From the NCBI GenBank assembly GCA_965365605.1, contig CBDUCI010000003.1, positions 1 through 35,235 of the forward strand: a DNA stretch of 35,235 nucleotides, given 5' to 3'. A model generated the notes under the pieces. It was not told the DNA's origin. It worked only from the letters and a program-made list of their open reading frames with translations, and did not search any database. This document shows, in pieces, positions 573 to 30,622 of the stretch (positions are counted from its first letter, which is position 1; every line of letters begins with the position of its first letter). Source of the DNA: an uncultured bacterium. Lineage in GTDB: Bacteria; Gemmatimonadota; Gemmatimonadetes; JACCXV01; JAHWKZ01. Position numbers and translations under genes: made by a program.

Positions 573-920
573 GTGAAGGGCGCGACCAAATCCGGTGGTG
601 AGGTTCGGTTGGTCGTCACGACCTGTCCAGACGAGGAGTTGGGAGAAGCGATCGTGCGTTCGCTCGTCGAGGAGCGACTGGCTGCCTGTGGGAATATCGT
701 CACCGGCGTGCGTTCAATCTTCTGGTGGCAGGGCAAAGTCGACAACGATAGCGAGTGCCTGGTGCTCCTCAAGACTCACACCTCACGGCTCGATCAGCTC
801 GCCTGCCGGCTCGAAGAGCTACACCCTTATGATGTTCCCGAGCTGCTTGCCCTAGAGGTCGATCGGGGGGCGATCGCGTATCTCGATTGGGTGGTTGAGG
901 AAACCGCGAGCGGCTCTTAG
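573..920 (+). CDS. cutA: Divalent-cation tolerance protein CutA
   Basis: LVEERLAACGNI, SIFWWQG, LLKT and HPYDVPE motifs; 115 aa. Confidence 0.93.
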   Translation: MKGATKSGGEVRLVVTTCPDEELGEAIVRSLVEERLAACGNIVTGVRSIFWWQGKVDNDSECLVLLKTHTSRLDQLACRLEELHPYDVPELLALEVDRGAIAYLDWVVEETASGS

Positions 921-975
921 GTTCTTTCACCTCAGCCCCATGTCCGGTCAAATCACGCTATTTCGGAATCCGTCG

Positions 976-1725
976 ATGCGCAGGATCGCGGTCGTCAACC
1001 ACAAGGGTGGAACCGGCAAGACGACGACGGCGGTTCATCTTGCGGCAGGCCTGGCCGGCCTGGGTCACCAGGTTCTGCTGCTAGAGCTCGATCCCCAGGG
1101 CAACGTCGGCACATGGTTCGGCATCAACGAACGAGACGCGTGTATGGCGGAGTTTCTGGCTGGCGAGCTGGATGCGTATGATTCGCTGGTCGAGGTGCGC
1201 GACAACCTCGATGTGATCGCCAGCGACTGGCGGTTGGCTGAAACCGAGGAGCGACTAATCTGGGGTCAAGAGCGGGAGCGCGGCTTGGCCAACCGACTCG
1301 CCAGCATCGAGGAGTACGAGGAGTACGAGTTCACGATTATCGATTGCGCGCCGTCGATGAGCATGTTAACGACCAGCGCGCTCGCTTACGCTGACGAGGT
1401 AATCATACCGATCTCGATGGAGTACCTAGCGTTGGTTGGAGTGCGACAGATCGTCGAGAACATTCTGCGGATGTCATCGTGGAACGGTAAGGAGGTACGG
1501 ATCGCCGCCGTTGTACCGACCTTCTATCGACACAACCTGCGAAAGAGCAAGGAGATTCTGGGTGTGCTGCGCAAACACTTCGACGCAGCTGTAACCGATC
1601 CGATACGCGACAACGTTCGGCTCTCGGAAGCGCCCAGCCACCGGGAGACGGTGTTCGAGTACGCTCCTCGCTCTCACGGAGCGGTCGACTACCGCAAACT
1701 GGTCGATCGTTTCGCCAGTGCCTGA
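976..1725 (+). CDS. ParA/Soj-family ATPase (orphan, no adjacent parB)
   Basis: Deviant Walker A NHKGGTGKTT, LDPQGN, IIDCAPS and Soj-like C-terminal RDNVRLSEAPSH. ATG 976 (MRRIAVVN) is the most likely start; ATG 940 is possible. Confidence 0.92.
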   Translation: MRRIAVVNHKGGTGKTTTAVHLAAGLAGLGHQVLLLELDPQGNVGTWFGINERDACMAEFLAGELDAYDSLVEVRDNLDVIASDWRLAETEERLIWGQERERGLANRLASIEEYEEYEFTIIDCAPSMSMLTTSALAYADEVIIPISMEYLALVGVRQIVENILRMSSWNGKEVRIAAVVPTFYRHNLRKSKEILGVLRKHFDAAVTDPIRDNVRLSEAPSHRETVFEYAPRSHGAVDYRKLVDRFASA

Positions 1726-2788
1726 GCGCGGCGACCAAATGAAGGGCTCGAGGGTCGGCACCGATCCGCTTGCAGCTCTCGACCCGGACCGGGTCGCTAC
1801 CTTGCTCGGTCAGGAGCCTCGGCGGAAAGCGCGGCGCAAGAAGGCTCGACCCCCAGAAAATCGCAAGTCGTCCAAGCCGGCCCGAAAGCGGTCGCGACCC
1901 CCAGCTGAGCCCGAACCGCCGGAGCTGAAGCTGATTCCAGAGCCTGAACCGGCGCCGCTGGAAACCACCCCCGCACCGGAGCCGATCGAGGTTGCGCCGG
2001 CGGAGCCGGAACCGATCGAGGTCGCGCCGGCGGAGCCCGCAGCGGCCGAAACGGTGTTGGTGGAACCCCCACTGGTCCAACCTCCGATCGTCGCGACACC
2101 GACAACTGAAACGTCATTGGTCGAGCCGCCGATTGTCGACACACCGTCGGTTGAAACACCGCCGACTGCGGCGGGTGAGGCGACCTTCGAGGTCGTCCCC
2201 GAAGACGATCCTGGGACCGATCACGGGCTCGATAAGCTATACGCTGCCCTGCGCAGCGATCCGCGGGATGTCGATGCGGCGATCCAGGTCGCGGATCAGC
2301 ATCTCGAACGCGGCTTGCACGATCAAGCGATCGCACAGCTTCTAGAGACCAAGGAGTTCGTTCCGGATTCGGTGGACGCGGCTATCGCGCTGGGCTCCGC
2401 GTACTGTCGAGCCGGCATGTACAGCGAGGCCGAGGCCGAGCTGGCGCGCGCCCTCCGACTCGATCCCGACAACGCGAGCGGCCATTGTGAGCTGGGGATT
2501 GTACACGGCAAGAAGGGGCTCTACGAAGAGGCGATCCAACAGCTGGGCCGAGCGCTCGAGCTGGACGCTGAACAAGCCCGCGCGCACTACTACGTGGGAG
2601 TGTACCTCAACCATATCGATCGGCTCGACGAGGCGGCTCAGGCGTTCGAGCGCGCAGTCGAGTGTGATCCGGCGCTCGGACGCGCCTACTACCACCTAGG
2701 CATCATCTGGGATCGCAAAGGTCGAACCGAGCGCGCGAAAGAGATGTACCGCCAAGCGCGGGAAGTCGAGAGCGACGATCGTGGATAG
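1718..2788 (+). CDS. TPR-repeat protein with basic N-terminus and Pro/Glu/Thr-rich linker
   Basis: C-terminal tandem TPR-like helices (ALGSAYCRAGMYSEAEAELARALRLDP, ELGIVHGKKGLYEEAIQQLGRALELD, AYYHLGIIWDRKGRTERAKEMYRQA). GTG 1718 overlaps the parA end; ATG 1739 is an alternative start. Confidence 0.85.
   Translation: MPERGDQMKGSRVGTDPLAALDPDRVATLLGQEPRRKARRKKARPPENRKSSKPARKRSRPPAEPEPPELKLIPEPEPAPLETTPAPEPIEVAPAEPEPIEVAPAEPAAAETVLVEPPLVQPPIVATPTTETSLVEPPIVDTPSVETPPTAAGEATFEVVPEDDPGTDHGLDKLYAALRSDPRDVDAAIQVADQHLERGLHDQAIAQLLETKEFVPDSVDAAIALGSAYCRAGMYSEAEAELARALRLDPDNASGHCELGIVHGKKGLYEEAIQQLGRALELDAEQARAHYYVGVYLNHIDRLDEAAQAFERAVECDPALGRAYYHLGIIWDRKGRTERAKEMYRQAREVESDDRG
1976..2035 (+). repeat. 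Tandem 30-bp in-frame repeat (PEPIEVAPAE x2)
   Basis: ccggagccgatcgaggttgcgccggcggag followed directly by ccggaaccgatcgaggtcgcgccggcggag (2 mismatches, both synonymous). Confidence 0.9.
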
Positions 2789-3944
2789 TCGCCACGGCGA
2801 CGGTCGCGGGTTTGCCACCAAAGCGATCCATGCTGGACAACATCCCGACCCGGTGACCGGGGCGGTCATGACGCCGATCTACCAGACGTCGACCTACGTC
2901 CAGGACGGCGTTGGTCGCCACCGCGGCTACGAGTACGCTCGTACGCACCACCTGACCCGAGCCGCACTGGAAGGTTGCGTGGCGGCTCTCGAGGGCGGGA
3001 GCCATGGTATCGCCTTCGCCTCTGGGACGGCTGCGATTCACGCCGTGATGACGCTGCTCTCTGGAGGAGATCATCTGGTGGCTGGCGAGAACCTCTACGG
3101 TGGCACCCACCGACTGTTCCAGAACGTGCTCGAACGGTTTGGCCTTTACTTCGACTACGTCGACACGCGAGACGCATCGGCGGTGGAAGCGACGATGACC
3201 GCCAATACGAAGATGCTGTTTGTCGAGACGCCATCCAACCCGCTGATGCGGATCACCGACCTCGCGGCGATGCGCGAGATCGCCGAGCGAGCGGAGTGCA
3301 TGCTGGTCGTTGACAACACCTTCATGTCACCGTTCTTTCAGCGCCCGCTCGAGTTCGGGGCCGACATCGTCGTTCACTCGACGACAAAGTTTCTGAACGG
3401 TCACAGCGACATGGTGGGTGGCGTCGCGGTGACCAACGACGGTGAGATTGCGGAACGATTGCGGTTTATCCAAAACGCGGTTGGCGCGGTGCCGGGCCCG
3501 CTGGACTGTTTTCTGGCGCTCCGCGGTCTCAAGACTCTGCCTCTGCGGATGGAACGCTCAGAGGCGACAGCGGTCGAGCTGGCCGGTTGGCTAGCCGAGC
3601 AAGATGTCGTAACCGCGGTTCACTTTCCCGGCCTTCCGGATCACCCTGAGCACGAGCTCGCCACCCGTCAAATGAGCGGTTACGGCGCGGTTATCTCGCT
3701 TGAGTTTGGCGGTGGCGCGGCCGCGCGGCGATTCCTCGAAGGCCTCGAGATCTTTCAATTGGCTGAGAGTCTGGGTGGGGTGGAGAGCTTGTGCAGCCAC
3801 CCGGGCGAGATGACGCACGCCGCTGTCCCGGTCGAGCAGCGCGAGCGGATGGGTCTTGTCGATCACCTGGTTCGGCTGTCGGTCGGAATCGAGGACCTCG
3901 ATGATCTCCGATCGGACCTCGAGCGAGCACTGAGCAAGGTCTGA
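2781..3944 (+). CDS. Cystathionine gamma-synthase/gamma-lyase family PLP enzyme
   Basis: PIYQTSTY, YEYAR, ETPSNP, VDNTF, PLP-lysine motif HSTTKFLNGHSD, SLGGVESL and RLSVGIE. Confidence 0.93.
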   Translation: MDSRHGDGRGFATKAIHAGQHPDPVTGAVMTPIYQTSTYVQDGVGRHRGYEYARTHHLTRAALEGCVAALEGGSHGIAFASGTAAIHAVMTLLSGGDHLVAGENLYGGTHRLFQNVLERFGLYFDYVDTRDASAVEATMTANTKMLFVETPSNPLMRITDLAAMREIAERAECMLVVDNTFMSPFFQRPLEFGADIVVHSTTKFLNGHSDMVGGVAVTNDGEIAERLRFIQNAVGAVPGPLDCFLALRGLKTLPLRMERSEATAVELAGWLAEQDVVTAVHFPGLPDHPEHELATRQMSGYGAVISLEFGGGAAARRFLEGLEIFQLAESLGGVESLCSHPGEMTHAAVPVEQRERMGLVDHLVRLSVGIEDLDDLRSDLERALSKV

Positions 3945-29575: not shown

Positions 29576-30622
29576 CTAGTCGGTCGCCAGGATGATGCGC
29601 TTGGCGATCTCGCGGAACCGCTCGGCGATCGGTGATTTGGGTAGCGCCACTACGATGGGCTCGCCGCTGTCGCCGGTCGGCGTGACGTCCTCATGCAATG
29701 GGATCGTACCGAGAAACGGAATGTTGAATCGCTCAGCGGTCGCTCGCCCGCCACCGCGCCCGAAGATCGAGTGCTCGGTGTTACAGCTCGGGCAAACGAA
29801 GCTGCCCATGTTTTCGACGATGCCCAACACCCGAGCGCCGACCTTGTCGAACATCTTGAGCCCTTTTTTGGCGTCGATCAGCGCGATGTCCTGTGGGGTG
29901 GTGACGATCACGGCTCCGTCCAAAGGCACGGATTGAGTCAGCGTCAGGTGTGCATCGCCGGTTCCGGGCGGTAAGTCGACAACCAGATAATCGAGCTCCC
30001 CCCAAGCGACTTCGCGCAGAAACTGGGTAACCGCCGAGTGAACCATAGGACCCCGCCACACCAGCGGCGTGTCCTCACCCTCAACTAAGAACCCGAGCGA
30101 CATGAGCGCGATCCCGTGGCGAGTCAGCGGTTGAATGCGCTTGCCGACGGTGCTCGGTTGAGCGCCTTTGAGTCCCATCATGGTGGGGATCGAAGGGCCG
30201 TAGATGTCGGCGTCAAGCAATCCCACGCGGTGTCCCTCAGCGGCGATTGCCAGCGCCAGGTTGACCGCTACGGTCGATTTACCGACGCCACCCTTTCCGC
30301 TGGCCACCGCCAACACATGATGCACGCCCTCGATCGGCTGCTGCGGCGACGGTCGTCGCGCCGGGCCAGTGGCGGTTCCTGGCTGCTCCTGGAGGCTGAT
30401 CGCCACCTCCTCGACGCCGTCGAGATCGCCAATCTGGCCCTTGAGCTCCTTGAGGACCGTCTCCGAGAGCGGCTGGGTGGGATCGACGAGCACCTTGAAT
30501 GCCACGCTGCCATCGTTGATCTTCAGTTCCTTGATCCGGCCCAGCGAGATGAGATCCTTGTCGCTGTCCGGGTCGCGGATACGGCGGATCGCTCGGATTA
30601 CGTCCTTTTCTTGCGCCGGCAT
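29576..30622 (-). CDS. mrp: Mrp/ApbC/NBP35 Fe-S cluster carrier ATPase
   Basis: N-terminal DUF59-like domain, SGKGGVGKST, DADIYGPS, WRGPM, DLPPGTGD, VTTPQ and ENM..FVCPSC. Confidence 0.95.
   Translation of the reverse strand: MPAQEKDVIRAIRRIRDPDSDKDLISLGRIKELKINDGSVAFKVLVDPTQPLSETVLKELKGQIGDLDGVEEVAISLQEQPGTATGPARRPSPQQPIEGVHHVLAVASGKGGVGKSTVAVNLALAIAAEGHRVGLLDADIYGPSIPTMMGLKGAQPSTVGKRIQPLTRHGIALMSLGFLVEGEDTPLVWRGPMVHSAVTQFLREVAWGELDYLVVDLPPGTGDAHLTLTQSVPLDGAVIVTTPQDIALIDAKKGLKMFDKVGARVLGIVENMGSFVCPSCNTEHSIFGRGGGRATAERFNIPFLGTIPLHEDVTPTGDSGEPIVVALPKSPIAERFREIAKRIILATD

Follow-up and report, generated by a model that had tools for sequence, protein, structure and literature searches.

A conserved ParA-TPR gene pair of Gemmatimonadota, probably a positioning module with a portable N-terminal tag

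The ParA gene and its TPR partner

We analysed a stretch of 35,235 nucleotides (nt), hereafter the window, from an uncultured bacterium of the phylum Gemmatimonadota (assembly GCA_965365605.1, contig CBDUCI010000003.1, positions 1 to 35,235), in which the gene of an orphan ParA/Soj-like ATPase of 249 amino acids (aa) (976..1725, + strand) is followed by the gene of a 356-aa partner (1718..2788, + strand) composed of an N-terminal tag, a basic patch, a disordered linker and a tetratricopeptide repeat (TPR) domain. An earlier reading of this DNA, made from its letters alone (the sequence-only reading), had proposed that the two genes form a positioning module. Our comparative analysis points the same way, as the pairing and the N-terminal peptide are conserved and the tag is absent from the five examined TPR orthologues of families in which this ParA was not found. 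These data suggest that the two genes probably encode a ParA and its adaptor, working as a positioning module whose tag is portable.

The ATPase matched Pfam families AAA_31 (2.6e-42, 145.2 bits for a cut-off of 27) and CbiA (3.2e-19, 69.6 bits for a cut-off of 25.4). It carries the deviant Walker A motif KGGTGKT with the signature lysine, giving it, together with a family hidden Markov model match over cut-off, both hallmarks of the ParA/MinD family. Residues K10 and G11 to T18 are invariant in the 24 ParAs that we aligned (alignment A2). Its closest solved relative by sequence is the Thermus Soj protein (1wcv, 8.4e-36), with residues 1-245 aligned, which bears out the earlier description of a Soj-like ATPase with an intact Walker A. 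The protein contains an NVRLSEAPSH box, of which NVRLSEAPS lies inside the Soj alignment; we take this box to be the site of the arginine through which Soj binds DNA non-specifically. No C-terminal membrane helix was evident, and no NCBIfam equivalog scored over its cut-off. A chromosomal ParABS ParA (Soj) was rejected on the NCBIfam ParA_partition score (102.8 bits, cut-off 180), on the TPR-only partner next to it, and on the location of ParB_N and a parS-like site, which are absent from the window and lie on another contig (C1) of the genome. The genome assembly (339 contigs, 2.52 Mb) has a completeness of 96.9%, and neither MinC nor MinE found a match in it; MinD was likewise rejected as an identity for the window ParA (minD_bact 35.1 bits, cut-off 212.9), and no MinD match over cut-off was obtained in the genome. 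The MipZ family PF09140 reached 46 bits (cut-off 20.7), covering only profile positions 2-134 of 262 and lying under the much stronger AAA_31 match.

The partner gene begins with a GTG at 1718, before the ParA stop codon (1723-1725), which results in an 8-nt overlap (1718..1725, + strand) of the kind typical of translational coupling. A start codon at this position is conserved in 18 of 19 orthologous loci. The partner would accordingly seem likely to be made together with ParA. An in-frame ATG at 1739, in contrast, is not conserved among orthologous loci. Searches of Pfam and NCBIfam with the partner returned TPR families only (Pfam residues ~170-352), with no ParB_N, no helix-turn-helix (HTH) and no DNA-binding domain, and the protein was therefore rejected as a ParB-family member. 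The overlap and the missing ParB and HTH domains had already been noted by the sequence-only reading, as had the order of peptide, acidic proline-rich linker and several TPRs, which composition, Pfam matches and an AlphaFold2 model all uphold.

The N-terminal tag (residues 9-31; 1742..1810, + strand) comprises basic residues, a VG-x-DPL motif and a short helix ending in LLG; residues 1-31 read MPERGDQMKGSRVGTDPLAALDPDRVATLLG and contain VGTDPL. Next comes an Arg/Lys-rich patch (residues 32-60; 1811..1897, + strand) with 15 K/R among 29 residues and a net charge of +13, and then an acidic Pro-rich linker, predicted to be disordered from its composition and from a predicted local distance difference test (pLDDT) value of 40-57 (residues 61-164; 1898..2209, + strand). 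Residues 61-165 include 29 P and 23 D/E in 105 residues, and a coding 30-nt tandem repeat lies inside the linker (1976-2037). The TPR domain (residues 165-354; 2210..2779, + strand) consists of eleven helices, that is five TPRs and a capping helix (5.5 repeats). Matches to Pfam TPR_11, TPR_2 and TPR_1 at 1e-20 to 1e-23 identify it as a TPR protein. In the AlphaFold2 model all eleven helices have a pLDDT above 93, and residues 1-164 are of low confidence except for a short helix at 23-29. Many positions of the TPR domain are invariant, including the surface-type residues K265, K266, N298, R322, D332, R333 and R348. We propose that the tag may serve as a ParA-binding, ATPase-activating peptide, and the TPR domain as a cargo-binding or self-association domain. 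Other TPR proteins gave only generic likeness: the magnetosome protein MamA scored 95 bits in NCBIfam (cut-off 200), PilW, LcrH and similar NCBIfam matches fell far under their cut-offs, and a sequence search of solved structures with the partner returned designed consensus TPRs, OGT and the like, and was uninformative.

Conservation of the pair and of its tag in Gemmatimonadota

Twenty loci from relatives were retrieved with the partner as query; two of them (L019 and L020) come from genomes flagged as unpublished, and no claim is based on these alone. In 19 of the 20, the gene immediately before the partner encodes a ParA orthologue (66-97% identical); the twentieth is cut at a contig end. 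A second set from a public genome collection, partly overlapping the first, held 32 loci, of which 28 are titled Gemmatimonadota or Gemmatimonadales. ParA and the tag are both present in 26 of these 28, and the other two are cut by a contig end; the four loci from other phyla encode generic TPR proteins with no ParA. Two families belonging to two other classes (f12 and f13) have the order cutA-parA-TPR in all six loci, with ParAs just 42-45% identical to ours and partners that open with a K-rich run followed by (V/M/I)G-x-DPL. As far as these sequences tell, the pair has been retained in no fewer than three Gemmatimonadota classes.

The N-terminal peptide is the best conserved region of the partner beyond the TPR domain. 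In a 24-row alignment covering the three classes, D16, P17, L18 and L29 are invariant (24/24 partners), and the stretch joining the tag to the TPR domain changes in composition and measures 62 to 176 aa. Thus, the pairing and the N-terminal peptide, whose conservation the sequence-only reading had put forward as a check, both proved conserved. The Arg/Lys-rich stretch that it had pointed out is present in the window protein, and the alignment indicates that it is kept in closer relatives only, with no conservation in more distant orthologues.

The same reading had suggested co-folding the ParA dimer with the N-terminus of the partner. We ran this with two ParA chains, two ATP molecules and partner residues 1-45, each protein being supplied as a 24-row alignment. 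The score was 0.58, against 0.00 for the best of three controls, and the verdict of the tool was only 'weak support'. Contacts agreed between runs at 86% or more, and the pLDDT of the partner was at least 58. In the calibration of the tool, 58 of 80 solved complexes passed, as did 2 of 110 mismatched pairs; only 7 of the 80 solved complexes scored 0.60 or less, and so did both passing mismatches. The pass may also reflect likeness to a solved ParA-peptide complex, if one like it exists.

Several Gemmatimonadota families depart from the pair. With a search threshold of E<=1e-40, the window-type ParA was not found in families f4 (0/125), f8 (0/69), f7 (0/23), f3 (0/6) and f5 (0/1), and family f6 yielded just one (1/47). 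The TPR orthologues of f3, f4, f5 and f7 were inspected at five loci (L073-L077), and all five have neither an adjoining ParA nor the tag. At four of these five loci cutA directly precedes the TPR gene, so that the two genes are neighbours through most of the phylum. CutA and the TPR protein may be functionally linked, an effect inseparable here from general synteny.

The tag on other partners of related ParAs

We searched public genomes with the ParA alignment and obtained 77 loci outside the phylum, with ParAs 40-50% identical to that of the window, and inspected the downstream gene in each. In a maximum-likelihood tree of 49 ParAs, those of Gemmatimonadota, including family f11, fell into one clade with those of Myxococcota, Bipolaricaulota and Nitrospinota (support 100/99). 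ParB-linked ParAs lay outside this clade, among them the canonical ParA of the window's own genome, and so did the microcompartment-linked ParA of that genome. Within the clade the TPR-linked ParAs do not form one group, the starred branches of the tree forcing two changes; partners have thus been swapped, with the tag remaining in place.

In Bipolaricaulota (L157-L171, some records of which are titled Thermotogae; e.g., L101 2501-4436), the clade ParA is found in the dcw cluster, in the order murB-ftsA-parA-ftsZ. The FtsZ encoded there (Pfam Tubulin 8.4e-47, FtsZ_C 3.6e-26) is extended at its N-terminus by 57-74 residues, beginning with a K-rich VG-x-DPL tag, for example MNKKKKSVGQDPLDGVMEDFY. 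A tagged FtsZ follows ParA in 14 of the 15 nearest Bipolaricaulota loci, and the remaining locus is cut at a contig end. In five of five Bipolaricaulota genomes searched, all of unknown completeness, no Tubulin/FtsZ match other than the tagged FtsZ was obtained, and none to MinC. FtsZ itself thus looks like the cargo of ParA in Bipolaricaulota, judging from gene order and tag. In Nitrospinota (L148 731-3226; L186, L187), the gene after the clade ParA encodes a CheA (two Hpt domains, H-kinase_dim, HATPase_c and CheW) opening with a Lys run and IG-x-DPF; there it is the chemoreceptor-array kinase itself that bears the tag.

In Myxococcota (Kofleriaceae, Haliangiales, Polyangiales, Sorangium) and in a metagenome-assembled genome of Bdellovibrionales, the clade ParA precedes a conserved protein of ~100 aa (L081-L156; e.g., L092 3313-3609). 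These small proteins have a short basic or acidic opening peptide, often with H-DPL or N-PL, then a basic linker and a conserved strand-helix end that by eye resembles a ribbon-helix-helix (RHH) fold. Pfam gave RHH_3 at 5.9e-4 for L088, under cut-off, and no match for L092. A regular expression for [DNS]P[LFMI] after K/R within 40 residues matched 34 of the 77 loci, 2-3 of these being in the wrong frame by eye. Four of the 77 are cut at a contig end, and in most others the small protein is again encoded, its peptide being an acidic-hydrophobic variant. At least one K/R within ten residues before DP[L/F] was observed in 74 of 75 rows, about four of the 75 rows being false matches. More distant ParAs are followed by true ParBs with the classical LG(K/R)GLDAL opening.

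Taken together, these loci suggest that the tag is portable and heads different, unrelated partners of related ParAs. Because the peptide is missing in the five ParA-less TPR orthologues and a similar peptide occurs on unrelated partners elsewhere, it is the likely contact with ParA.

Genomic context of the pair

The conserved neighbours of the pair are cutA upstream (573..920, + strand; Pfam CutA1 3.8e-35) and, downstream, a gene for a Cys/Met-metabolism pyridoxal phosphate (PLP) enzyme (2781..3944, + strand; Pfam 4.6e-146) that overlaps the partner stop by 8 nt; synteny supports both. The flanking genes are of the housekeeping type, with NUDIX, CutA and the Cys/Met PLP enzyme recognized by Pfam and purD-like and mutM-like genes by eye. 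The block nudix-cutA-parA-TPR-cgs-purD-mutM is syntenic, with cgs present in 28/28 loci and cutA in 23/28, the others having no upstream sequence. As the entire seven-gene block is syntenic throughout and the compared genomes are kin, adjacency alone is weak evidence, and the two genes might have no functional link at all and be kept together by inherited synteny. We consider this very improbable, for the 8-nt overlap is conserved in 18 of the 19 loci, the tag is missing from every one of the five ParA-less TPR orthologues examined and recurs on unrelated proteins after related ParAs in other phyla, and the co-fold controls scored nothing (0.00).

The sole ParB_N match of the genome is on contig C1, where it adjoins the canonical ParA, and a parS-like site lies directly upstream of that parA-parB (C1:38685-38700). 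In the window no parS-like site was found at <=3 mismatches. Both expectations of the sequence-only reading, no parB or parS in the window and a separate canonical parAB elsewhere in the genome, were therefore borne out. Around the parA and partner genes we found no centromere-like iterated or inverted repeats besides the coding 30-nt repeat. These results bear on another explanation of the pair, namely that it is an unconventional DNA-partition system in which the Arg/Lys patch binds DNA as the centromere-binding part and the two genes serve to segregate a replicon or a region of the chromosome. The strong charge of the patch (+13 over 29 residues) is in line with such a role, and so are the small RHH-looking partners of the nearest Myxococcota ParA relatives (Pfam RHH under cut-off for L088, absent for L092). 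Nevertheless, we judge it improbable: the patch is not conserved in more distant orthologues, the partner has no Pfam DNA-binding domain, there are no flanking centromere-like repeats and no parS in the window, a complete parS-parA-parB exists elsewhere in the genome, and the locus belongs to a housekeeping block of the chromosome that is conserved phylum-wide.

Another P-loop ATPase gene of the window (29576-30622, - strand) matched the same P-loop models as the window ParA but has no relation to the pair; it encodes an Fe-S carrier ATPase of the Mrp/NUBPL type (Pfam ParA/NUBPL 4.4e-105 and FeS_assembly_P). A third ParA-like gene of the genome is on contig C13 (locus L004 1477-2292), within a microcompartment locus (L004 207-3520), between two BMC shell genes (Pfam BMC 1.6e-14 and 7.1e-25) and a phosphotransacetylase gene (PTA_PTB 9.1e-104), and a 107-aa open reading frame (ORF) without Pfam match follows it. 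This gene is a candidate McdA-like positioning gene for the metabolosome. No other protein of the genome was found to bear a true N-terminal tag among ten regular-expression matches, in which the motif was near the start only in the partner and in a signal-peptide-like ORF on contig C88. DNA near-identical to window positions 900-2900 occurs in public metagenome runs whose labels are marine sediment, sediment, marsh and salt marsh; at least half of the sampled words of this segment are present in each of seven runs, which come from four studies, and no RNA run was listed among the 21 public runs matching it.

Proposed mechanism and possible cargo

According to PMC7993993, any interaction domain becomes a ParA/MinD activator once an N-terminal peptide rich in positive charge is grafted onto it, and PMC10241942 terms such an activating peptide a 'luggage tag'. 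The partner has the layout of this class, with a conserved, positively charged N-terminal peptide, a flexible region and an interaction domain. From what is known of the family, ATP-bound ParA dimers would coat the nucleoid by binding non-specifically. The tag would then dock on a ParA dimer and trigger ATP hydrolysis, like the N-terminal peptides of ParB, ParG, PomX, McdB and TlpT, and the long disordered linker would tether it to the 5.5-repeat TPR domain, which could bind the cargo or itself build it. By repeated binding and release on a ParA gradient, the cargo would be placed along the nucleoid and shared between daughter cells. As a first guess, the cargo is a cytoplasmic protein assembly.

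Several observations weigh against the positioning module. The tag of the window protein is less basic than classical activator peptides, with just two basic residues and, across residues 1-31, a net charge of -1. The co-fold passed only weakly and is a small addition to the comparative evidence. Part of the parA-TPR adjacency is inherited rather than selected, the pair sitting in a co-directional housekeeping block that is syntenic among kin, and the gene context offered neither a cargo candidate nor a third conserved gene. The joint absence of ParA and tag may go back to one single evolutionary event. Moreover, several families retain the TPR protein but not the ParA, and it must therefore have a ParA-independent role. 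In family f11, all three loci (L068-L070) have the TPR gene upstream of ParA and no DPL tag, and the TPR protein has a conserved C-terminal extension of ~100 aa that ends in a possibly amphipathic helix. No tagged partner was found downstream of the f11 ParA, where a secreted beta-propeller-like protein is encoded instead; the function of the tag may have moved or been replaced in this family.

It is also conceivable, if rather unlikely, that the TPR protein regulates or anchors ParA, recruiting, sequestering or switching it off at a cell site as polar landmark proteins do, or that ParA is a MipZ-like spatial inhibitor whose cycle is tuned by the TPR protein. The evidence from the tag and from coupling fits this too, no cargo gene is linked to the pair, and the existence of the TPR protein without ParA in other families means that it is not merely a ParA accessory, which counts in the same direction. 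On the other side, the relatives in the clade carry their tag on FtsZ and CheA, which are themselves cargo or parts of cargo and favour the logic of an adaptor, and a modelled tag joined by a long flexible linker to a binding domain is how known adaptors are built, as described in PMC7993993. We retain the positioning module as the probable function of the pair.

A component of the divisome is the most interesting candidate for its cargo. It is attractive because no MinC, MinE or above-cut-off MinD was found in the genome, because the tag sits on FtsZ in a sister lineage, and because of a 2024 report that the phylum has no known division-site system and that extra ParA-like proteins are candidates (PMC11271474). 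The pair might then be the division-site placement system of Min-less Gemmatimonadota, with the TPR domain holding FtsZ or an early divisome protein and ParA placing it over the nucleoid, a speculative proposal to which we give little credence. Equally doubtful is its wider form, in which the pair would be one branch of a cross-phylum ParA clade served by one portable tag (K/R-rich, (V/I)G-x-DPL), with Bipolaricaulota skipping the adaptor and carrying the tag directly on FtsZ. Against a divisome cargo, CheA and RHH-like proteins are likewise partners of ParAs of this clade, and Min is also missing from lineages that have no window-type ParA.

Comparison with known systems

ParA/MinD ATPases are the main known means of placing large objects in bacteria, and each new adaptor points to a new cargo. 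Here, the adaptor is cleanly modular and its tag sharply conserved, and it comes from a phylum about whose cell biology next to nothing is known. The occurrence of the tag on FtsZ, CheA, small RHH-like proteins and a TPR protein, each beside a ParA of one clade, amounts to a testable general rule: the tag may travel together with its ParA and become attached to new cargo. Sets of tag and ParA would also be natural parts for engineered positioning systems. Among open-access papers and bioRxiv preprints, we found no published description of the ParA-TPR pair, of the (V/I)G-x-DPL tag or of a tagged FtsZ, in agreement with the remark of the sequence-only reading that it did not recognise the partner architecture from described systems. 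The system hence looks undescribed and, on comparative grounds, looks like one that positions a protein cargo.

The closest system by sequence of the ATPase is Soj/ParA-Spo0J/ParB-parS, since Thermus Soj (1wcv) is the best structural relative and the NVRLSEAPS box is shared. The LG(K/R)GLDAL box at the N-terminus of ParB also resembles the tag in its layout of basic residues, Gly and a Leu-rich turn. Unlike in Soj-Spo0J, the window partner has no ParB_N or HTH, there is no parS, the ParA_partition score is under cut-off and the ParA belongs to a separate clade of the tree. The pair can also be compared with ParF-ParG of plasmid TP228 (type Ib), in which, according to PMC7993993, a small ParA works with a non-ParB partner that has a flexible, ATPase-activating N-terminal tail. 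The nearest relatives of the window ParA outside Gemmatimonadota recall such type Ib pairs, having partners of ~100 aa with a tag, a linker and an RHH-like end. In contrast to ParG, the window partner ends in a TPR domain with no DNA-binding domain, and its locus is a chromosomal housekeeping one devoid of centromere repeats.

Orphan ParAs that serve non-DNA cargo offer further parallels. In ParC-ParP and PpfA-TlpT, the N-terminus of the partner contacts the ATPase (PMC10241942, PMC7993993), and the Nitrospinota member of the window ParA's clade precedes a tagged CheA. The window locus differs from both in having no chemotaxis genes and a plain TPR protein as partner. McdA-McdB is likewise encoded by two genes, and the disordered N-terminal part of the adaptor contacts the ATPase while its C-terminal part associates with the cargo (PMC10241942 and PMC12139897). 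Unlike this system, the window pair has no carboxysome genes near it, McdB is not a TPR protein, and the microcompartment locus of the genome has its own ParA-like gene on another contig. The window ParA also keeps the signature lysine. To our knowledge, cyanobacterial McdA is without it.

PomXYZ of Myxococcus xanthus differs from the window pair in having three components, a C-terminal coiled coil of PomX that forms filaments, and a tag of dissimilar sequence. It resembles the proposed module in using a ParA-like ATPase bound to the nucleoid (PomZ) in an organism without Min. PomX itself, as portrayed in PMC7993993, parallels the build of the TPR partner, with a conserved N-terminal peptide sufficient to stimulate the ATPase, an Ala/Pro-rich and probably unstructured region, and a C-terminal interaction domain.

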